Shown in pieces: positions 1,600 to 11,151 of a DNA stretch of 21,782 bases. The translations under genes and the position numbers were made by a program. The notes under the pieces were generated by a model. The model had not been told where the DNA came from. It did not search any database and saw only the letters and a program-made list of their open reading frames with translations. The DNA is taken from positions 1,443,147 to 1,464,928 of the forward strand of contig ML992505.1 of the NCBI GenBank assembly GCA_010093995.1, given 5' to 3'. The number at the start of each line of letters is the position of its first letter. Positions within the stretch are counted from its first letter, which is position 1. The stretch is from Elsinoe ampelina (lineage: Eukaryota).

Positions 1600-2197
1600 G
1601 GGGAGAGGGAATGTGGTCTTGCGCTGGAGAAATGGATGGGTGCGAGTGAGAGGGTGGGTGTGCTCTTGGGAGGATGGTTTCGGTGACAGGGCGCTAGCTA
1701 TCGCTGGTAGGAAGACGGTCTCGCGGGTGGTAGGATGTCATCGCTGGAAGAGTGGCATTGCTGATAGGACGACAGCGTTGTTGGTAGGATCAAGGCGGCT
1801 TGCATGCAATGGATTGACATGTTCGGAGAGACTAATTCAATTCAACGGCGCTATGACTACTACATTGCCCTTCCTTTGTATCTCGAGAGGCTTGAAAGGT
1901 ATAGCGAGAGGCGATGGGGTATTACTGGAGCTGCAAGGAGTGGTCTTGACAGGACTACGAGGAGGAGTCATAAAGAGGCTGCTCAGAGGAGCAAGATGAT
2001 CAGCAATGCATGGGTGACACGGTGGGAGAAGATCACGACTCAGCAGAGGAGAACAAATCGAGCAAGCAGTCCACACCAGCGCGGATGAAATCAGAGTGTC
2101 ATGTCATGGGTATCTTGCTGTCCCAAACGCCGGTGCCTTCCCTTCGCCTGTCCTCGTCCTGATACCCCACCGCCCCCCTCCCCTCCCCCTTCAACCT

Positions 2198-2993
2198 TCA
2201 CCTCCCCACCACCACGTCCATCTTCCTCCCCTTCATCCTCTGCCTCGCCTCCACCACATCCCTCGTCGCCAACTGCGACTCCCTGCACCCCGCCGCCTTC
2301 CCCTCCCTCGCCAGCTTCTCTCTAACCACCACCAGCAGCAACTCTCTTGCCACAATGGCCGACTCCTTGCTCTCCCTCGCGAGCCACGACAAGCCCTCCA
2401 CCAAGGTCGACGACCACTGGGACACATCCTCTTCCGGGATGATGCGGCATGCGTTGCACCCCAGCTCGGGCGCGCGGTGGGCGGCACAGACGTGCCATTT
2501 CTTGGGATGGAGCTCGGGCACCATGATCACCGATTTCCAGTCCATACCCCAGGCTTGTTCGATGTGGGCGAGGCTGGCGGCGATCCTGGGCTTGAGGGTG
2601 GGCGGACCGGAGGGGGCGGAGGGGGCGGAGGGGCTGTCGGTCATTACTACCAGGTGGTCAGCGTGATTTGATGAACTTGACGTGGATGTTGGATACCTTC
2701 GTCTTGTTGAGGTATTGGAGGCGGAGGTACTACCAGGTCTGTGAGTATGGTCTTGCGTGAGTCTAGCAGGTGAAAGGTCTTACGGTCGGCCAGCGGATTT
2801 GGTGGCATTGGGTAATCGGTCGGCTGATCTTCATCGTATGAATTCCCTGCCAGCAATGTCAGTCATTTGTCGTTGCGAGCTGTTCCTGACGAGTTGCTGG
2901 TAGTATTTTCGCCGTGGAACTACCAGGTCTGGCGTTTGGGATTGAGAACTCACAGTACAGGTTATTCATGTCTCGCTGGAAGGGGTGCGACAT
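2198..2993 (-). CDS. Orphan protein A, unknown family, paralogue of orphan B. Predicted exons 2993-2954, 2846-2784, 2729-2697, 2646-2198; 194 aa.
   Basis: Three phase-1 introns (GTGAGT..CTGAC..CAG, 107 nt; GTAAGA..CTCAC..CTGGTAG, 54 nt; GTATCC..CTGAC..CTGGTAG, 50 nt) join into one open frame: MSHPFQRDMNNLYWNSYDEDQPTDYPMPPNPLADLPPPPIPQQDEVMTDSP...HIEQAWGMDW...WSSTLVEGLSWLA...LATRDV. The C-terminal domain aligns to ORF 7432-7788. An alternative in-frame acceptor exists at 2739. Confidence 0.75.
2608..2633. repeat. Short 9-bp tandem repeat (CGGAGGGGG) x about 3, encoding PSA repeats in orphan A
   Basis: cggagggggcggagggggcggagggg read directly. Confidence 0.7.
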
Positions 2994-3168
2994 GGTGCAG
3001 GAGAAGATGCAATGGTCGATAATTGGTTGTTTGAAGGTGCGTGCTGGTAGTATCTTGCGACGAGTGACTTCGTGAATGTGGCCAGCGAAAAGGTGAGAGG
3101 TGAGGTCGAAAATGAGATTGAAAGAAATGCCAAAATATAAAGTGCAGAATCGCCTGAAGTACTACCAG
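2647..3168. repeat. Dispersed heptamer cluster 1 (CTACCAG/CTGGTAG, 6 exact copies)
   Basis: CTACCAG at 2647, 2730, 2920, 3162; CTGGTAG at 2897, 3044. All six extend to ACTACCAG/CTGGTAGT. Confidence 0.9.
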
Positions 3169-4087
3169 GCACCCATCGTCCCTACGCCCTCTATTGTCAA
3201 GCCGCCTCCAACTATTGTTACCACAGTGACAATACAGGGGAGCATGTGATAGCACGTGAGAGCCAGGAATCGCAGGAAAAAAAGTGCAAAAATGAATGGC
3301 ACATGTTCGGAATCGCACATCGACGTTTGTGGTGACAGAGAGAATAGTCTCGAATATGAGAGTAAACCCGTTGAGTGAGAGCACGGTGTCGGAGAAAGGA
3401 ACGCTTGAGCTACAGGGGCGTTCATCTCGTGGATTCATTTGGGAAACCAGCGGCAAACAATAAATATATACCTTTCCATCTGCTCTGTGAGCCCACCCGT
3501 GCGCTTGACAAGTCCTCATCACATTGCACACTTCGAAACGTCATATCATACTTCTGAGTCGTCGGTCGATTGACATGATCATGATCAACAAGGAAATATG
3601 GAGAGTCTCTAACCTTCAGCGATTCTGGAACAGAATTCGCCACAGATTGTGTCACAAGGCAATTGGGCTAGTTTCGTATTGTCACAATTGATTTCATGAA
3701 GCAAGCACTGTCGATAATCAGTCTATTGAACATGGATGGTATTGTGCACTAGTCAATCGAGGGTATGCATGCTCCGGCAGTGACCAGCCCACATGTCTCT
3801 CGAACGAGTGCAACAATCGGCACATGTCACATGAGTCGGAAGCTAGTCGTTTTCACTTCTCCAGGATCTGAAGCATGGCGATTTGAGAATGCCAGATGGG
3901 ATCTTGGTGATTCTGCCGGATCGTGATGCAACGAAAGGATGGAGAGTTTGGCAGACGTCTGGCCAAGCACAAACCCCAACTCTGACAGAGCCGCATGCAA
4001 ACGTGCTGACTCAGCTTTGAGGCTTTCAATAACCTTGAATATAATTCTAATGTCTCTACAATCACACATCGACAACACTATGTAATC

Positions 4088-4873
4088 ATGCCACAAATCG
4101 AGGAGCTTCAGACCTCCGCAAAGGCGAATGCGCCCGGCTGGTCGTATGTGGTCGACACGGGCTATGACCCCAGCAAAGTCGCCATCAATCCAACAAATCG
4201 CAAACGACTACGAACAGGCCAAGCAGAGTCCGCCTCAGACCTCACACTCCGACAGCAGACTGCGATTAATCGCTACCTCGCCGAGCTGGACAAGGACTCG
4301 CATCGCGAAGTCCAGATCGCCGTACCCAAGCCGATCAGCAACAAAAAGCAGACAACCAATGCGAAAAGGATTCTGGGGTCGGGAAAAACATTCCAGCACT
4401 ACTTGGAAGAAGAGGAGGCACGTCTTGCGCTGAAGGGTGGAGCAGAGACTGTACCACAAGGTCCGAAAGAGCAGCGACCCAGCAAGACGCCAATCGCTAG
4501 GAGGAAGAGTGCGCTTGCGAACGCAGAGAGCGCAGAGGCTAGCCCTGCACCATCCAGCCAAGGAGGAAAGTCAACACCGAAGCCAGTCCAGCAACCACCG
4601 CCATCTTCATATCCACAAGACTCAATACTGGCTATACCGCCGGCGGTCGGCATTACCGAAGAGGAGATCGAGAAATTGCTGGACCAGCCCATGCTCACTT
4701 ACAATGCGGCCAAATCAGCACCACCGAAGATGGATGGGAGGAAACCCCAGGTCTTCTGCGAGATCTGCGGATACTGGGGACGAGCGAAGTGCATGAAATG
4801 CGGCGCAAGAATCTGCGGCCTCGAATGCAGGGATACCCACGATGAGAGCAGGTGCCTGAAGTTCTACGCCTGA
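4088..4873 (+). CDS. VPS71: SWR1 complex subunit Vps71/Swc6 (zf-HIT protein); intronless, 261 aa
   Basis: N-terminal APGWSYV, ELDKDSHREVQI and RILGSGKTFQHYLEEE motifs; C-terminal HIT zinc finger FCEICGYWG..KCMKCGARICGLECRDTHDESRCLKFYA. Confidence 0.9.
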   Translation: MPQIEELQTSAKANAPGWSYVVDTGYDPSKVAINPTNRKRLRTGQAESASDLTLRQQTAINRYLAELDKDSHREVQIAVPKPISNKKQTTNAKRILGSGKTFQHYLEEEEARLALKGGAETVPQGPKEQRPSKTPIARRKSALANAESAEASPAPSSQGGKSTPKPVQQPPPSSYPQDSILAIPPAVGITEEEIEKLLDQPMLTYNAAKSAPPKMDGRKPQVFCEICGYWGRAKCMKCGARICGLECRDTHDESRCLKFYA

Positions 4874-4900
4874 TACACGACTATTTACGACTTCCACGAA

Positions 4901-5790
4901 TCACAACTGTACACCATTACACAACGCCCCGTCCACCACAAAATTCGCACCACTCGTAAACGAGCTCTTCGAACTCGCCAGAAACACCACAGCAGCAGCA
5001 ATCTCCTCCGCCTTCCCCATCCTCCCCATCGGATTCTTTCCCATTTGGCTCTTGAACAAATCCGGCATATCCCTCTCAACATTCCCCCACACCCCATCAG
5101 CAATGTATATATTCCCGGGACTCACCGTATTCGCCCTCATACCCTTTCCCGCCCACGCATGCGCCAACTGCGACGTATAGTGCACAATCGCCGCCTTCAA
5201 CGCCGCATACGGTCCCGGCGCAGTGAAATCCACATCCCGCCCCGACACCGAGGAGATGGTCACCAGATTGCCCTTGGACTTCTCCAGATACGGCTCCGCT
5301 ACGCTAGCCATGGTGTACAGCGCCTTCATGTCGGCGGCGTAAGCGGCGTCCCAGTTTTCCGGGGTGTTCTCGATGGCCAGCGCGGAGACGTTGGAGACGA
5401 TGACGTCGATGGAGGAGTGGGTGGTGACGATGTCTTGGATCCATTGGGTTAGGGAAGGCGTGGAGGTGATGTCGACTTTTGTGAAGGTGATCTTGACGGA
5501 GGGGTAGGTTTTTTGGAGGGACGAGGAGGTGGTGGTGCTGGCGTCTGAGGAGCGGGCGCAGAAGTGAACGTTGGCGCCTTCTTGGGCGCTGAGGGGGTCA
5601 GCGATGCACGAAAGTAGCATGGATAAACAGCAGCAGCTGGGTGCTTGGGGGGTAAGCATACAATGCCTCCACGATGGCTTTTCCAATGCCTTTGCTCCCA
5701 CCTGGTGTGTGTCAGTGCTGTACAGTGAGTTCGGAATTGTTTTCACGTGCCTGTGACTAGCACATTTTTGCCCTCAAGACCTAGCTTCAT
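4901..5790 (-). CDS. Classical short-chain dehydrogenase/reductase (FabG-like). Exons 5790-5751, 5701-5662, 5588-4901; 255 aa.
   Basis: Splicing restores [39 protein letters not shown] (Rossmann TGxxxGIG). Catalytic S...YAALK, NTVSPG and terminal VVDGA are present. Intron 1 is GC-AG (49 nt); intron 2 is GTATGC..CTGAC..CAG (73 nt). Confidence 0.92.
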
Positions 5791-6865
5791 GATGAGCAAT
5801 TATCCTGTAGACTTTACGATCGCGCTGCTTGCGAGAGCTGCTTATCTTGAGTTGTCAACAGTGACCTGAGACGTCATGGCATTGTGTGAGAGGTGTGGGG
5901 CGCACCAGAAGCGGGGGAGCGGCCTGGTGGAACTTTCAGCTTCGACTTCATCCTTCCTTCATTCTCGCCACAATAGTCAAATATGGATCACAGGCAATAT
6001 GAAGGACTGAATTTTCTGTGAGCGGACATGTATGGTGATATCGTGATAGTTTTGATGATTTTTGTGGTGCTTCGATGTGATTGTGGCGTGCTGTGATGTC
6101 TCGTGTCCGCAGCAGGTTTGTGCTCATCTTCTCTTTGAACGCAATGAAATGGTTACCATCTCCTTCAGAGACATGGTGATAGAGCATCGAATAGACGAAT
6201 GGAACTGACATGGCCACTACACTGCAGAGTGTCTGCGCCCACGCCCGCATGGGCTGTCGGGCGCATGATGCCAAGTGTCGTCACATGTCAGTGAAGGTAT
6301 ATATATTTTATTAATTTATCTGATCTCCAAGAGAGGCGCGAATAGGGCTATGGAGCCTGAAAGTGCGGGTGAATGGTCTAGTGGGAACCAGCAGCACCAA
6401 TTGTGCGTGTACGGCTGTACCACCAAGACCCCGGGGTATTCACTCGTAGCATTTCACTGCGGTCGCAGCCGAAGCAGTCTCAAGAAAGCACCACCCATAG
6501 AGGTACCGCAGACGAGATTGTCCAAGCCAACACCGCGTCGATTCGTGGAGATGAGATCATTGCGCGCGGATGATCGACTCGAAGCTGACTTGTCGGCACA
6601 TGCGCCTCTCTTTTTTTGTCCGGTTCGACTCACGGACTGTCCTTCTTTTTGGGCATGTCACTTCACATATTGTGGACAGGAGGGGTAAGTTGACATGTGA
6701 CAGCACGCGTGAACCCGTGAAGCAGGCTACCAGCCACTCGCATTTTTGGTGGTGCGCACGGCATATTGTGAGTTCGCACTTGCGAGATTCTCTTCACCTT
6801 CCTCTCAGCATACCGACCATCCTCGCCTCCTAGATTACTACCAGAATCAATCAAATACTACCAGG

Positions 6866-7788
6866 ATGCCGAATCCTGTCTACCAAGATGCGCGCAATGC
6901 GTTGCGTAAGATGCACTGCACCTGGAGAAGCCGCGATGTGAGATCTGATTTTTCACACAGTCAACGGTCTGGCCTCCGGGTCAAAGAGGAAGAGGGAGGA
7001 AGAGCCTCCGGCTGCTGGTAGTTACAACGGCTCTATTCCTACCAGGCGCGGCTGGTCTGACTAGTATAGCAGTATCTGAGGGAGAGGGAGAGGCCGGCGG
7101 CCCCCCTGCAGAAGAAGGTAATACACCATCACGTCTGCAGATATCCTACCACGATGCTGACGACCTGGTAGTTTCTACTGGTGAGGAAGAGGCTGGCGGG
7201 TCCGCCTCCACAGAACAAGGTATGGCACCACCAATTTCACATTGTCGATCAACCTACCAGAATGCTGACGACCTGGTAGTACCCGAGGCCGAGGGTGGCG
7301 CTGGCGCCCCCTCCAACGAGCCCGCAGACGACGGTATTGCTCACCCCTTCTCATAATCATCCTACCAGCATACTGACGGCCTGGTAGTTTCCGGCGCGCC
7401 AAGCTCGAAGAAGCAGCGCAAAGACAACCGCGTGGTCGCAATGGACCACCTCCGTACCAACTGGGGAGAAGACTGGGTCGAGAAGGTCATGGACGACGAG
7501 ATCCTTCCGTGGGTGGCGACCGGCCCGGAGGTACTTGCTGGTAGGACCAGCGAGGGCAAATCCTACCAGACGGGCATTCGTTTGCTGAGGAATCCAGAGG
7601 AGTGGTCGACCTCCCTGGTAGTTGAGATGGCTTGGCTGGCGAAGAAGACGCCTGGGGAGCAGGAGAAGGTCAAGGGGATGCTCAAGAAGCAGTTGGGTGG
7701 CAAGCTGGAGGCGGAGGGATTCAAGGGTGGTGCTGGGTTGGTTTTGCTGGCTCCCAGAGATGTCAAGGCGGTGGTTGCTATGCTGTAA
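6866..7788 (+). CDS. Orphan protein B, unknown family, paralogue of orphan A, probably nuclear. Predicted exons 6866-6905, 6961-7017, 7073(or 7070)-7117, 7172-7219, 7280-7333, 7388-7788; about 214 aa.
   Basis: Five phase-1 GT-AG introns of 52-60 nt, each with a CTGAY branch site, give one open frame: MPNPVYQDARNALLNGLASGSKRKREEEPPAA-VSEGEGEAGGPPAEE-VSTGEEEAGGSASTEQ-VPEAEGGAGAPSNEPADD-VSGAPSSKKQRKDNRVVAMDHLRTNWGEDW...WSTSLVVEMAWLA...LAPRDV. KRKR and KKQRK are NLS-like. Confidence 0.8.
7073..7387 (+). repeat. Three degenerate tandem exon+intron units of about 100-108 bp inside orphan B
   Basis: Units 7073-7171, 7172-7279 and 7280-7387 each comprise an acidic/Gly exon ending GAAG/CAAG/GACG, a GTA donor, and an intron tail cctacca(c/g)-xat(g/a)ctgacg(a/g)c-ctggtag. 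Confidence 0.85.
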
Positions 7789-8103
7789 TTTGTGGTAGTT
7801 CATGAGCGAGAAATACTACCAGAGAACATGCCGGCGGGCTGTCGATTGTTGAAGACTCTACATACCATCCTTGCTATGTGCAGTGATTACTACCAGGACA
7901 CGAGAACTTCATGACAAGATCCGGGTCATTGGCCATCTTTCTGGTAGTACCAGGCGGAAACATCCTACCAGGCAAGTGACATGGTCTAGCACCAGTGACA
8001 TGAGATGGCTCATGAAATTAAGAAGTGACGGAGACTTCTGGTAATAACAGACGTGGCAATCCTACTAGGCCAGCTTCGGAGGAAGGGCAAGAACATATGT
8101 GCA

Positions 8104-8960
8104 TTATGGACCAACTCGTTGTCCCATACCACGCATCTGTATACCGCTCCCCAACGTCGAATTCCTCTGCCCGGACACACTCGGCAGCACGCCATACCTC
8201 CCATAGGTCTTCTGATCCACCGAAACATAATGTGGCAGCCTTCCCAGTAAATTCAGCTTACCCTCCACCCACCTCAGTATCCTCTCCGACGGGACCAAGA
8301 ACTTGATATACCCAAGACCCCAAAGATATCCAATCAGCAAGCCGCAAACATGCCCAGTAAAGCTCGAAGCCGGTATCAGTGCCGATATCACCAGACATAC
8401 AGCGCAGGGATACGTCCAAGTCGGTATCTTCACACCTCCAATCTCGAAATTCGGATTCGCCTTCCAAGTCTTGATGGCCTCGCTCGCCATGAGCAGGAAT
8501 ATCCAGATGCTCGCACCTTGTACGCCGATATTGGAATGGAAGATGAACTTTTCTATCAACACATATAGACCACCGGGGAGAGTCGAGAAAGGACCGGTGA
8601 AGAGGGCGAGGGTGATGAGGGTGCCGAACTCTGCTTCGAAGCGTTCGAGGAGCGGGATCAGGGCGAGGATGTTGAGGAAGAAGTGGATGAAGCCGAGGTG
8701 GAGGAAGGGGTAGGTGTTGATTCTATGCACTGTGATGTGTTAGACCAAGTCGCCGAGCAGTCTTCGGGAGCCATACTGCTAGTCAAAGCCACCTCATTCG
8801 GTATTAATGCTGCCCATTTCGGGAACCACGGAAGTGTGAGACTGGCGATGAAGAATCCAACAGTGACCAGGCCGAGCAGTCGTGTGCATAGCGGCAGTCG
8901 TACTATATAAGACCGGGCTCGCTTCGCATCGCATTGGAAGAATGGCGACGTCGACGCCAT
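8104..8960 (-). CDS. RBD2: Rhomboid-type intramembrane serine protease 2. Exons 8960-8777, 8729-8104; 269 aa.
   Basis: RLPLCTR...; 47-nt intron GTATGG..CTAAC..CAG; MHRINTYPFLHLGFIHFFLN, ERFEAEFGT, catalytic GAS and GH(V)CG; C-terminal LPHYVSVDQKTYGRYGVLP typical of Pezizomycotina Rbd2. Confidence 0.92.
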
Positions 8961-9160
8961 GACTGTGGCACTCAATGCATGTTTCGCAGGTGGGAAAGTT
9001 CAGGAGATGAAGTCAAGACACGTCGCAAACGTCAAAGCTGCTGCGGCGCGTTTCTCCCGGCGGGGACTTGGGCTCTTTGTTGCGAGTGCCACCATCACGA
9101 GACCATCAACATTGGTGATGGGAGTCCAATAACACTAGCGATTGATCCAAAAGTGCTGCC

Positions 9161-11151
9161 ATGGCAAGATTGATATGTGAGTAATTTGCATTTGGCCCAG
9201 GACGTGGCTAATATCACTCAGCTGGGCTGTTGAGCCTGCGGCGAGACCCCCGACTCATAAAGCTGCCACCGTATCTATCGATCCTCCTGATTCTTGTCGG
9301 AATAGTTTGGCTATTAGTTCTGCCACTCGATGAATACTCGAGGAATACCTATGTCTCGGAAAATGCTCTTCTGCCAGGCCAGGTCCACACCTATTTTGGT
9401 GGCAGCGAGCACAATATCTTCCGAGCATATCGACAAGAAGTCGCTGCTCTTGCTGGAATGAGCGAACGAGAGTCAGTGCTGCTTTGTTGTGTTTGACTAG
9501 CCATCTGACGTTCTATAGTCGCACCGATGGACTTCTCAAGATACTTCAGTCACAAGGACTAAAGGCAGCCAGCCAAGACTACCACTTCTCTCGAGCTGGG
9601 CAATGGAAGAATGGTACCAACGTCTATGGTGTCATTCAAGGGCCTCGAGCAGATGCGACGGAGGCGATGGTGCTCATCGGCGCATGGTATAACTCAGAGG
9701 GCAAGATCAACTACAGCGGCGTTGCTCTCGTCCTCACACTGGCTCGATATTTCAAGCGCTGGTCACTCTGGTCAAAGGACATCATCGTCCTCCTCACTCC
9801 AGACAGCACATTCGGACCTCAAGCATGGGTCGATGCGTATCACGAATCACAAGACACTTCGGCAGTCGAGCCGCTATCGATCAAGTCCGGAGCACTGCAA
9901 GGAGCTGTAGCAGTTGACTATCCTGCTGGACCTTGGGGCCAACGCTTCGAGAAGCTGCATATTGTGTACGATGGCATCAATGGACAATTGCCGAACCTTG
10001 ACCTCATCAACACTGCTATCAACATTGCAAACAATCAGATCGGCATTGGCTGCACGATACAGAAGATGTGGCAACACGAGAACAAGTACAAGGAACGACT
10101 TCTGACCATCGCCCGTGGTATGCTCAGCCAAGCTGTCGGCCACTCAAGCGGACCTCATAGCAGCTTCATACCATACCACGTTGATGCAATTACGATCCAG
10201 ACTGTCGGAGATGGGTGGCACGACGAAATGTCACTGGGCAGATCGGTGGAAGGACTGTTCCGCAGTCTCAACAATCTGCTAGAGCACTTGCATCAAAGCT
10301 TCTTCTTCTACCTCTTGATGCACTCCAACCGATTCGTCAGTATCGGCACCTATCTACCCAGCGCCATGTTGATCGCCGGGAGCTTCACGATCACCGCAAT
10401 CCTCCTCTGGTTTCTGAGTGGTCGGCCTGGCACAAGGTCTTCCAATCCTCCGAAAGCATCCGCTTTGGACAAAAAGGAGCCTGTTGCCCTTGTCAAGAGC
10501 GGAGATAGTGTAGCTGTAGTGCCAGCGCAGGATTTGGAGACAGTGGAGCGGGATCTCAATTTGCCCTTATTGGTGGTCTTCGGTGCACATGCGGCTGGAG
10601 TGGTGCCTTTCTACATCATCAACCATGCGCCACAGTCATCACTCGACATGCTCGGACCCGTCCTCGGAGCCGCATCTATCCTCACACCTGTGATTGCATC
10701 TGCGGCAGTATCACGAAGCATGGAAGTCACTGTGCAACAACTCATGCTCATCCAATGCTTCTCACTTCTCGTACTCGGAGCCGCGCTCTCCACTCTAGCA
10801 ACCATCAACTTCGCACAAGCATTTATCATCGGCATCGCAGCGAGCCCCTTGTCATTCGTCCGACCTCTCTCACCCCGAATGCCTCTCCAACCACGAGCAG
10901 AATTCACCCTCGTCGGCATGGTGATACTCAGCGCCATCGCTCCCATGACGCTCCTCTGGGGCGGCAGCTACTACTTCCACCAACCCCTCCGCGACGTCCT
11001 CAGCGCAGCGGCATGGGCATGGCGGGTAGAAAGAGTATGGACGGGCGTGACAGTTTGGCTGGTATGGTGGCCAGCATGGGCGTGCAGCGTCTTTGCATGG
11101 ACAAGTGGGGTGTTCCAGACGACCCCTTCTCCCAGGGTCAGAAAAAGCTAG
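9161..11151 (+). CDS. GAA1: GPI transamidase component Gaa1. Exons 9161-9176, 9222-9471, 9519-11151; 632 aa.
   Basis: N-terminal TM followed by RNTYVSENALLPGQ; PRADATEA, WSKDII, GINGQLPNLDLIN, RSLNNLLEHLHQSFFFYL and FVSIGTYLP motifs; C-terminal TM helices. Two canonical introns (45 and 47 nt) keep frame. Confidence 0.95.

Follow-up and report, generated by a model that had tools for sequence, protein, structure and literature searches.

Short RNA hairpins that mark the transcripts of one gene family are well described: histone mRNAs carry a 3' stem-loop that is read by SLBP, and the 3' untranslated region (UTR) of the transferrin-receptor mRNA contains an array of five iron-responsive elements. 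In the exon 6 cluster of insect Dscam, RNA pairing chooses among tandem exons, with docking and selector sites that form competing pairings; we know of no fungal case in which splicing is controlled by competing RNA structures. The micro-exon genes of schistosomes are lineage-specific, have short symmetric exons and encode secreted proteins, and to our knowledge no shared self-complementary splice-site word has been described for them. Introner-like elements are described as whole introns that are longer than regular ones (PMC3609843), and they are present in hundreds of copies in unrelated genes of Dothideomycetes (PMC3609843, PMC4457414).

Here, we analyzed a stretch of 21,782 nt from Elsinoe ampelina (hereafter, the window) and found two loci, A and B, in which a single self-complementary word, CTGGTAG/CTACCAG, recurs as the main building block. 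It has the look of a control signal private to an Elsinoe gene family, with the family's own proteins as one candidate reader.

Gene models and family

Gene A (2198..2993, minus strand) has exons at 2993-2954, 2846-2784, 2729-2697, and 2646-2198, and encodes a protein of 194 aa with MSHPFQRD as its N-terminal motif, Pro/acidic microexons, and a ~125-aa domain at the C-terminus. Its last exon shares 99% identity with the E. ampelina protein P0002 (“hypothetical protein, partial”), and RNA contigs lie on the gene at 2257-2653 and 2275-2638; the upstream exons were modeled from sequence signals and the shared N-terminal motif. Gene B (6866..7788, plus strand) has exons at 6866-6905, 6961-7017, 7070-7117, 7172-7219, 7280-7333, and 7388-7788, and encodes 215 aa with an MPNPVYQD motif, a basic patch (KRKREEE), a set of three similar acidic Gly/Pro microexons, and, at the C-terminus, the domain of the family. 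A search of the public collection gave no protein identical to B. The B model and the annotated E. batatas protein P0001 are collinear, with 124 of 216 aligned columns identical, and this orthologue, as annotated, contains all three B-type microexons. The only RNA contig on B spans 7621-7793, and 6807-7607 has no contig coverage; the contigs, which extend over little of A and B, showed no isoform, intron retention, or exon skipping.

The two models share their architecture. The first exon is 40 nt long in both and encodes M-x2-P-x3-D-x2-N, and all eight introns are phase 1 and GT..AG, with CTGAC- or CTCAC-like branch sites and lengths of 50-60 nt in seven cases and 107 nt in one. The internal exons are all multiples of three, so that skipping any one of them between phase-1 introns leaves the reading frame intact, as in the micro-exon genes of schistosomes. 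The first exon, the exclusive use of phase-1 introns, and the acidic/Pro microexons had all been named in the original prediction for this DNA, and each is present in the checked models.

The same prediction had proposed that A and B share a C-terminal domain, and had left the significance of the alignment to a shuffle test. Inspection of the translations by eye confirmed an H-x4-WG-x-DW-x4-M-x2-E-x2-P block with 8 of 21 positions identical and a 54-aa block with 18 identical; BLASTP of the last exons gave 35 of 126 identical residues (E 2e-10), and the Smith-Waterman score was 105 as compared to 30.1 +/- 5.0 in 2000 shuffles, none of which reached it. With 28% protein identity, A and B are diverged paralogues in a small gene family that is restricted to Elsinoe: all named relatives are Elsinoe proteins, and a third E. 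ampelina paralogue, P0006, lies outside the window. Each of the two proteins combines a short conserved N-terminal peptide, NLS-like basic patches, acidic Gly/Pro microexons, and, at the C-terminus, a helical domain of ~125 aa, which is mildly basic in A, B, P0001, and P0003 (pI 8.5-10.2) and acidic in P0004 and P0005 (pI 5.1-5.2). The first reading had recognized neither the domain nor the heptamer, and our searches agree on both. With the domain, there was no Pfam hit above threshold, no sequence match in PDB, and a best Foldseek E of 0.54, while the two best VIA matches, with Z of 4.7 (rmsd 3.1, 77 aligned) and 4.9 (rmsd 3.4, 81 aligned), were both AAA+ lid domains below the stated noise level of the tool. 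No DNA-binding or RNA-binding family or fold was assignable to A or B by these Pfam, PDB-sequence, and fold searches.

Distribution of the heptamer

Both strands of the window together hold 29 copies of CTACCAG/CTGGTAG, whereas dinucleotide shuffles averaged 2.08 and never exceeded 6 (0 of 100 shuffles gave 29). CTACCAG is the top heptamer of the window in frequency as well as in clustering, with 17 copies within 1.3 kb, and 23 of the 29 exact copies fall in the two loci: six in locus A (2198-3173; 6.1 per kb) and 17 in locus B (6720-8070; 12.6 per kb). The remaining 19,455 nt hold six copies, or 0.31 per kb where a Markov-1 model predicts 0.09 (Poisson P 0.009), and a scan of the window found no comparable density in the 3.5 kb separating A from B or in the other genes. 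The proposal that a gene family is coupled to a cis-element thus stands within the window, where both paralogues bear the motif and nothing comparable occurs elsewhere, on a basis of two loci. That these are the only two dense clusters is true of the exact word; a candidate third, degenerate array at 1704..1789 (plus strand) qualifies it. This array comprises five copies similar to TGGTAGGA (1704, 1727, 1744, 1761, and 1781; spacing 17-23 nt), of which one is exact, and lies 15-100 nt 5' of the start codon of a small ORF (1804-2088) and 410-490 nt past the stop of A, in a region covered by RNA contigs (1433-2067). It is possibly part of the same system, as a candidate only.

The cluster of locus A (2647..3168) consists of two copies that form 3' splice sites (2647 for intron 3 and 2730 for intron 2), an inverted pair within intron 1 (2897 and 2920), and two copies 5' of the ATG (3044 and 3162), which are covered by an RNA contig at 3037-3173. 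In the cluster of locus B (6727..7971), three copies lie upstream of the ATG (at 133, 22, and 2 nt), one at the 5' splice site of intron 2, one in the interior of that intron, five in introns 3-5 (three of them at 3' splice sites), three in coding exon 6, and four past the stop (at 28-177 nt). Just 5' of the B ATG, a direct array with a spacing of about 20 nt (6838, 6858, and 6880) has the look of promoter sites, as does the array at 1704-1789. Read in gene sense, the two loci contain 12 CTACCAG and 11 CTGGTAG and show no orientation bias, and centre-to-centre spacings of 19-25 nt recur. Close inverted pairs number six as compared to 2.1 expected from random placement at equal density (P 0.018).

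Splice sites and the triplicated module of B

Five of the eight A and B introns end in CCTGGTAG, and intron 2 of B begins at CTG:GTAG (the colon marking the 5' splice site), which places the heptamer exactly on 6 of the 16 splice junctions. The three introns of neighboring genes verified by RNA joints (two in the dehydrogenase and one in the rhomboid gene; 47-73 nt) carry no copy.

An exon-intron module of 108 nt is present in tandem triplicate in B and accounts for five exact and one near copy of the heptamer. The three intron 3' ends (7146-7171, 7254-7279, and 7362-7387, plus strand) read CCTACCAG/C-N12-CCTGGTAG, ending at the splice junction, and repeat with the microexons at the 108-nt period. 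The partner CCTACCAG lies 12 nt 5' of CCTGGTAG in introns 3-5, which would put the CTGAC branch site in a 12-nt loop and the 3' splice site in the stem; the predicted folds of these ends range from -5.8 to -8.9 kcal/mol. As in Dscam, tandem paralogous exons that are frame-compatible (three modules, phase 1-1) each follow a conserved intronic element that is complementary to the other copies in the pre-mRNA. Unlike in Dscam, each B intron has its own local partner in place of a single common docking site, and all three exons are present in the E. batatas orthologue as annotated.

By position, the last introns of A and B are homologous, and the similarity between A and B introns is confined to the last ~18 nt, where 17 of 18 positions are identical at the intron 3' end, or to a 31-nt unit. 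Overall, the non-coding elements of A and B share 77-94% identity over 18-31 nt, while the best stretch of coding DNA reaches 33 of 48 (69%). This better conservation of non-coding than of coding DNA argues for constraint or recent spread. Introner-like elements resemble this arrangement in being from the same fungal class, in the recurrence of intron sequence between genes, and in predicted secondary structure. They differ in that A and B share only pieces of 18-31 nt, have introns of 50-107 nt, and are two paralogues, the only carriers in this window. The A and B introns are not longer than regular ones such as those of their neighbors, which speaks against an assignment to this class.

Hairpin units

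What the original prediction had called a cloud of heptamers proved to be structured: the copies form splice sites, duplicated intron ends, and hairpin units whose loops are homologous. An oriented unit of ~31 nt (CTGGTAG-N16-18-CTACCAG) occurs six times across the A and B loci, with similar loops, in introns, coding sequence, and 3' flank, and at positions that are not homologous (intron 1 of A, intron 2 and a coding exon of B, and three in the B 3' flank). The units are 63-83% alike; both 7-nt arms are exact in four of the six, and an imperfect arm is found in those starting at 7792 and 8038.

The unit in A intron 1 (2897..2926, minus strand) consists of CTGGTAG, a 16-nt loop, and CTACCAG, is identical to B units at 25/30, 25/31, and 24/31 positions, and has a predicted fold of -10 kcal/mol (z -2.68); its loop fits the B loops in gene-sense orientation only. 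The unit at the start of B intron 2 (7015..7045, plus strand) has the 5' splice site CTG:GTAGTT in its first arm. The unit in B coding exon 6 (7538..7569, plus strand) encodes ..AGRTSEGKSYQ.. within the domain's variable beta-hairpin, in a reading frame that runs through it collinear with P0001; its stem extends to 9 + 4 bp, and its predicted fold of -19.9 kcal/mol (z -4.02) was equaled by none of 200 shuffles. The E. batatas orthologue has REG at the position of AGR, so the first arm cannot exist there, and the coding-exon hairpin, at least, is without cross-species conservation. Four nucleotides past the B stop, the unit at 7792..7822 (plus strand) has a first arm, GTGGTAG, with one mismatch, is identical to the A unit at 25 of 30 positions, and folds with a z of -3.42. 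Further into the 3' flank, the unit at 7941..7971 (plus strand) starts with the 13-nt palindrome CTGGTAGTACCAG, and a degenerate unit at 8038..8068 (plus strand; CTGGTAA..CTACTAG) retains 74% identity with the reference copy; it differs by two changes, the first of which still permits a G-U pair, and the second adjoins the loop.

The six loops gave a mean pairwise score of 1.4 as compared to -4.4 +/- 0.7 for shuffled loops (0 of 2000 shuffles reached 1.4), and all six units fit one another better in gene sense than in the reverse orientation; this holds also for the A unit, which lies on the other DNA strand. Among the nine hairpins predicted from inverted pairs, four have z <= -2.6, while five, with z from -0.5 to -1.5, are not clearly more stable than shuffles. 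No unit was found in the 19.5 kb of the window outside the A and B loci. Downstream of B, an mRNA contig of the convergent rhomboid gene (7856-8989) places the heptamer copies from 7890 on inside the 3' UTR of that gene, and it passes unspliced through two units, including 7941..7971.

Conserved hairpins that mark the transcripts of one family, possibly in several copies per transcript, are what the histone and iron-responsive stem-loops have in common with the A and B units, whose stem and loop are conserved over all six units at the two loci examined. The units differ from both in lying also in introns and coding sequence, in a stem word that doubles as a splice site, and in a long loop (16-18 nt, about 60-80% conserved), and here the hairpins are predicted and the reader is a candidate. 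REP- and MITE-like repeats are likewise short palindromes in local repetition, and the 7-nt arms form terminal inverted repeats as in MITE or foldback elements; the A and B units are distinct in lying in the genes of one family and on splice sites. The 4-nt flanks of the six units (e.g., GCTG/GCGC, CTTG/ACGG, CTTT/GCAA) are not direct repeats and thus provide no target-site duplication, which speaks against membership in this class.

Discussion

We tentatively favor, at somewhat less than even probability, a family-specific RNA hairpin and splice-site code. The heptamer would work at the transcript level, where complementary copies may pair in the pre-mRNA or mRNA. Stems of 7 to 9 bp could mask or present the splice sites of frame-neutral (phase 1-1) microexons, and the 31-nt stem-loops with their conserved loop could offer a trans-acting factor repeated landing sites, candidate readers including the family's own, probably nuclear, proteins. 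Together, pairing and landing sites might govern how the transcripts of this family alone are spliced, which isoform is made, or how stable they are, in the manner of a private RNA regulon. The consistent gene-sense orientation of the units points to RNA, and the heptamers exactly on splice signals, the extreme enrichment limited to two paralogous loci, the excess of inverted pairs with predicted hairpins, the similar loops, the non-coding elements that are better conserved than coding DNA, the internal exons that can be skipped in frame, and the G-U pair kept in the degenerate unit all speak for such a code. Against it are the short stems and the unremarkable stability of most hairpins, the coding-exon hairpin that is not shared with E. 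batatas, the direct arrays that resemble promoter sites, the copies that lie in the 3' UTR of another gene, and the common orientation of the five B units, which could stem from local direct duplication. A further elaboration, in which orphan proteins or a co-evolved partner would read the stem-loops in a self-referential, genus-specific system and competing pairings would act as a docking/selector code for inclusion of the acidic microexons, seems to us quite doubtful.

Both orientations and the fixed spacings would equally suit a dimeric DNA-binding protein, which counts against the RNA code and leads to an alternative that is possible, if on the unlikely side. The heptamer would then be the half-site of a probably dimeric factor, possibly the A and B proteins themselves, and dense homotypic arrays that extend from the promoter through the gene body into the 3' flank would provide private transcriptional or chromatin control, with the overlap with splice sites being secondary. 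The unbiased orientations, the spacings of about two helical turns, and the direct arrays just 5' of the B ATG and at 1704-1789 are consistent with this, as are the NLS-like basic patches, the activator-like acidic stretches, and the mildly basic C-terminal domains of four members; the excess in the rest of the window (six copies versus ~1.75 expected) would fit a factor with further targets. However, the domains of P0004 and P0005 are acidic, three copies lie within coding sequence, and such a factor would need neither conserved, strand-oriented loops nor exact placement on splice junctions. The original options of a nuclear protein that binds arrays of its own site and of a locus-marking signal stay conjectural; the Pfam, PDB-sequence, and fold searches assigned A and B to no DNA-binding fold or family.

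We regard as unlikely that the units are a selfish or neutral palindromic mini-repeat, that is, footprints of foldback, MITE-like, or introner-like elements or of template-switch repair, some of which were co-opted as splice sites without a dedicated function. Similar units at non-homologous positions are what such a repeat would leave, GT..AG can be read on both strands of each unit, and the units turn over, one arm of the coding-exon unit being probably absent from the E. batatas orthologue; introner-like elements have, moreover, been described in other Dothideomycetes (PMC3609843, PMC4457414). Nevertheless, the other 19.5 kb of the window and the other introns hold no unit, and a dispersing element would not by chance pick two paralogues 4 kb apart. 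That A and B have their 3' splice sites in the same context suggests retention rather than decay. The units are also not mini-introns, because the rhomboid mRNA runs unspliced through two of them, and the short introns of A and B contrast with introner-like elements, which are described as longer than regular introns. The earlier suggestion of a mobile element, relic or domesticated, finds no support within the window in target-site duplications or dispersed copies. Duplication history alone, with an ancestral intron-end motif multiplied by exon-intron duplication and the other copies due to chance or composition, would explain the triplication copies and the homologous last introns but is very improbable, since without the triplication B keeps 12 exact copies and A 6 (versus <0.2 expected per locus), since paralogues this diverged should have randomized introns and flanks if unconstrained, yet their short non-coding elements stay similar, and since the loops resemble one another beyond all shuffles.

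Should the word prove common elsewhere, the finding would shrink to a repeat of local extent beside two paralogues of the ordinary, fast-evolving kind. If the coupling of family and word extends across the genome, one seven-letter word would be splice site, hairpin stem, and repeated landing site at once, and it would offer a handle on how orphan genes gain regulation, on whether RNA pairing steers the splicing of symmetric microexons in filamentous fungi, and on the function of Elsinoe-restricted proteins, one of them unannotated. The docking/selector reading, if true, would be the first fungal case that we know of, and a gene family with a private splice-site dialect. If the coupling holds genome-wide, the two loci would represent a compact natural case of a young gene family and a cis-acting code arising together.

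Results

The heptamer CTACCAG, counted together with its reverse complement CTGGTAG, is found 29 times in the window of 21,782 nt, compared with a mean of 2.08 in dinucleotide-preserving shuffles, none of which (0 of 100) reached 29, and it is the most frequent and most clustered heptamer of the whole window. Six copies lie at the orphan gene A (locus 2198-3173) and 17 at its paralogue B (locus 6720-8070), which bears out the claimed clustering at both paralogues (23 copies versus 6 elsewhere); the six copies in the remaining 19,455 nt exceed the Markov-1 expectation about 3.4-fold (P = 0.009). The heptamer is absent from the 3.5 kb separating the two loci, an interval with two genes, one for a HIT-zinc-finger protein and one for a short-chain dehydrogenase. 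The original prediction described each cluster as a cloud; the clusters stand, and their arrangement at splice sites, in intron-end hairpins, and in 31-nt units is more ordered than that word conveys. Within the two loci available, the results support the proposed coupling of a gene family to a cis-element.

Gene models were derived from the sequence and verified by script. A lies on the minus strand with four exons (2993-2954, 2846-2784, 2729-2697, and 2646-2198) encoding 194 residues, and B on the plus strand with six exons (6866-6905, 6961-7017, 7070-7117, 7172-7219, 7280-7333, and 7388-7788) encoding 215 residues. All eight introns are bounded by GT..AG and every internal exon has a length divisible by three. 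The checked models also uphold two features that had been read by eye, namely a 40-nt first exon encoding M-x2-P-x3-D-x2-N in both genes and introns exclusively in phase 1 (8 of 8). The last exons share 35 of 126 residues (E = 2e-10), and the proposed paralogy withstands a shuffle test (Smith-Waterman z = 14.9; none of 2000 shuffles reached the score). For A, the last exon shows 99% identity to the Elsinoe ampelina entry P0002 (hypothetical protein, partial); the top match of B is its E. batatas orthologue, P0001 (55% identity), with which the model is collinear from end to end (124 of 216 aligned columns identical). Since no identical protein was found for B in a collection of 5.8 billion clusters and its best match is only the E. 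batatas orthologue, B seems to be missing from the public E. ampelina gene annotation.

RNA contigs cover A only at 2257-2653, 2275-2638, and 3037-3173, so sequence signals, together with the N-terminal motif that A has in common with B and P0001, are the basis for its upstream exons. In the four runs, contigs cover B only at 7621-7793, 6807-7607 being outside the cover, and the introns of neighbouring genes are confirmed by spliced joints. In B, introns 3 and 4 (54 and 60 nt; region 7118-7279) have lengths divisible by three and no stop in the frame of the exons (ORF 6949-7356), such that their retention would add 18 and 20 residues, respectively; intron 5 (54 nt) contains an in-frame stop. 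One RNA contig omits 84 nt at 2173-2256 with the non-canonical ends CC..CA (plus strand), and P0002, the public annotation of A, has the same junction and hence a different C-terminus. Because this length equals two 42-nt tandem repeats, the omission may reflect variation in repeat number, or an artefact, instead of an intron. Without it, the A protein ends in RDVVEARQRM.., a sequence that can be aligned with RDVKAVVAML at the C-terminus of the family.

When 1.84 billion representative proteins were searched with a profile, five were recovered at E <= 0.001, all from Elsinoe, and a further search added P0006, a third E. ampelina paralogue located outside the window on the same 1.9-Mb contig; within the window, a family HMM run against 530 six-frame ORFs recovered A and B only. 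AlphaFold2 predicts with confidence that the C-terminal domain consists of five helices and a long beta-hairpin (pLDDT 85, pTM 0.74). As originally judged, the domain resembles nothing recognised: it has no match in Pfam, PDB sequences, or solved folds, the best Foldseek hit has an E of 0.54, two VIA-align searches reach at best Z 4.7-4.9 with AAA+ lid domains, under the stated noise level of the tool, and the best ESM Atlas score (0.81) belongs to unnamed bacterial clusters and offers nothing usable.

The word coincides with splicing signals in both genes. CCTGGTAG forms the 3' end of introns 2 and 3 of A and of introns 3-5 of B, five of eight in all, and the 5' splice site of B intron 2 reads CTG|GTAGTT. 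The splice-site copies of B introns 3-5 are each preceded, at a distance of 12 nt, by a partner, CCTACCAG (or CCTACCAC in the case of intron 3), and the predicted hairpins place the CTGAC branch site within the loop and the 3' splice site within the stem. Together with their microexons, the three intron ends constitute a 108-nt tandem triplication, a period detected by repeat search and not reported by TRF. Single copies of a longer consensus, TACTACCAGG, precede the start codons of A and B and also follow the stop codon of B. Close inverted pairs of the heptamer number 6, compared with 2.1 under random placement at equal density (P = 0.018). CTGGTAGTA and TACTACCAG may resemble GUAGUA, the branch-binding sequence of U2 snRNA, and UACUAAC, the branch consensus of yeast.

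Six copies of a 31-nt unit, CTGGTAG-N16-18-CTACCAG, were identified: in A intron 1 (2926-2897), at the 5' end of B intron 2 (7015), in B coding exon 6 (7538), 4 nt past the B stop (7792), and downstream of B (7941 and a degenerate copy at 8038). Their loops are alike, with a mean pairwise score of 1.4 versus -4.4 +/- 0.7 for shuffled loops (none of 2000 shuffles reached 1.4), and each of the six fits the others better in the gene sense than when flipped; this holds also for the A unit, which is on the opposite DNA strand. Hairpins are predicted at the units and intron ends with energies of -5.8 to -19.9 kcal/mol, the degenerate unit excepted, and four of nine fold clearly better than shuffles.

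Between the two loci, blastn aligns a single coding stretch (33 of 48 nt identical). The A unit matches three of the B units, with 24-25 identical positions out of 30-31, and the final 18 nt of A intron 3 share 17 with B intron 4. As the A and B proteins are only 28% identical, unconstrained non-coding sequence should have randomised, and the shared elements are thus either constrained or recently spread. The E. batatas orthologue keeps SYQ and LVV, which are word-encoded in B, and carries REG in place of AGR at the first arm of the coding-exon unit; the 108-nt triplication by itself accounts for five exact B copies. Both the REG/AGR change and the triplication-derived copies argue against the view that every copy is deeply conserved.

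A and B are oriented head to head with two housekeeping genes between them, and their neighbours are ordinary housekeeping genes: Tma16 (796-1599), the HIT-zinc-finger protein (4088-4873), the short-chain dehydrogenase (4901-5838), a rhomboid protease (8104-8989), and the GPI transamidase subunit Gaa1 (9334-11151). The region is neither repeat-rich nor transposon-rich. Transcribed from the minus strand, the abundant mRNA of the rhomboid gene reaches at least 7856, so its 3' UTR overlaps the 3' flank of B and takes in both the degenerate unit (8038-8068) and the heptamers of 7890-7971; the two convergent genes probably overlap. At 8121-8969, contigs of three runs carry 15-17 differences from the window, and the spacing of those in rhomboid coding sequence, mostly in multiples of three, points to a diverged strain or sister lineage under the same organism code in public runs; the cover of these contigs excludes A and B. 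At 1704-2088, five TGGTAGGA-like copies, 17-23 nt apart, lie 15-100 nt upstream of an ATG at 1804 that opens a 94-codon ORF (to 2088) without a Pfam match. This stretch is inside RNA contigs 1433-2067, and the depth of one run peaks here (94.8). The peptide ISNAWVTRW in the ORF resembles the family hallmark [LI]xxAWGxDW; hhalign of the ORF against the family profile gives a probability of 0.2%, which is not significant. The ORF may be the relic of a third family member, or the array may be part of the far 3' end of A.

Discussion

We tentatively favour the view that the word works in transcripts, as a putative private post-transcriptional control of the A/B family, given its position on splicing signals, its pairing tendency, the strand-consistent loops, and a G-U-compatible change in the degenerate unit. 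The main rival, which we regard as doubtful, is an array of DNA sites for a factor that acts as a dimer and might be the A/B proteins; the roughly 20-nt spacing of copies, the direct arrays adjoining start codons, and the activator-like composition of the proteins can be cited for it. To our knowledge, no fungal transcription-factor site fits the heptamer. A selfish palindromic mini-repeat is unlikely: no target-site duplications were found at the units, the window holds no copies of the unit elsewhere, and an abundant mRNA contig passes uninterrupted through two units. Duplication history alone is very improbable, as it leaves 18 further copies unaccounted for.

Several other candidates were rejected: mini-introns, because two units remain unspliced in the mRNA contig; intron-encoded snoRNAs, because the introns are too short and Rfam lends no support (a single lncRNA match at chance level, E = 0.31); and relics of YYQ/LVV coding repeats, because the copies are spread over all three frames. 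A tRNA search returned none. Introner-like elements, in the portions of the two reports available (PMC3609843, PMC4457414), are whole, long introns in hundreds of copies, whereas A and B share only pieces of 18-31 nt in short introns and on that description do not qualify; the available portion of PMC4457414 yielded no consensus for comparison. Among the papers listed for the heptamer and four octamer extensions, none gave a relevant context, the covered passages of the E. fawcettii near-T2T genome paper (PMC12941528) name no motif or MITE, and titles and abstracts on Dothideomycetes MITEs and introns contained nothing relevant.

Under transcript-level control, complementary heptamer copies would pair with one another and thereby hide or expose the splice sites of microexons that are neutral to the reading frame, and the oriented 31-nt stem-loops would serve as repeated landing sites for a putative factor. 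Among known systems, this might work most like family-specific mRNA stem-loops or docking/selector RNA pairings. The A/B system is best read as a candidate family-specific code of cis-acting hairpins and splice sites, seen at two loci of E. ampelina.
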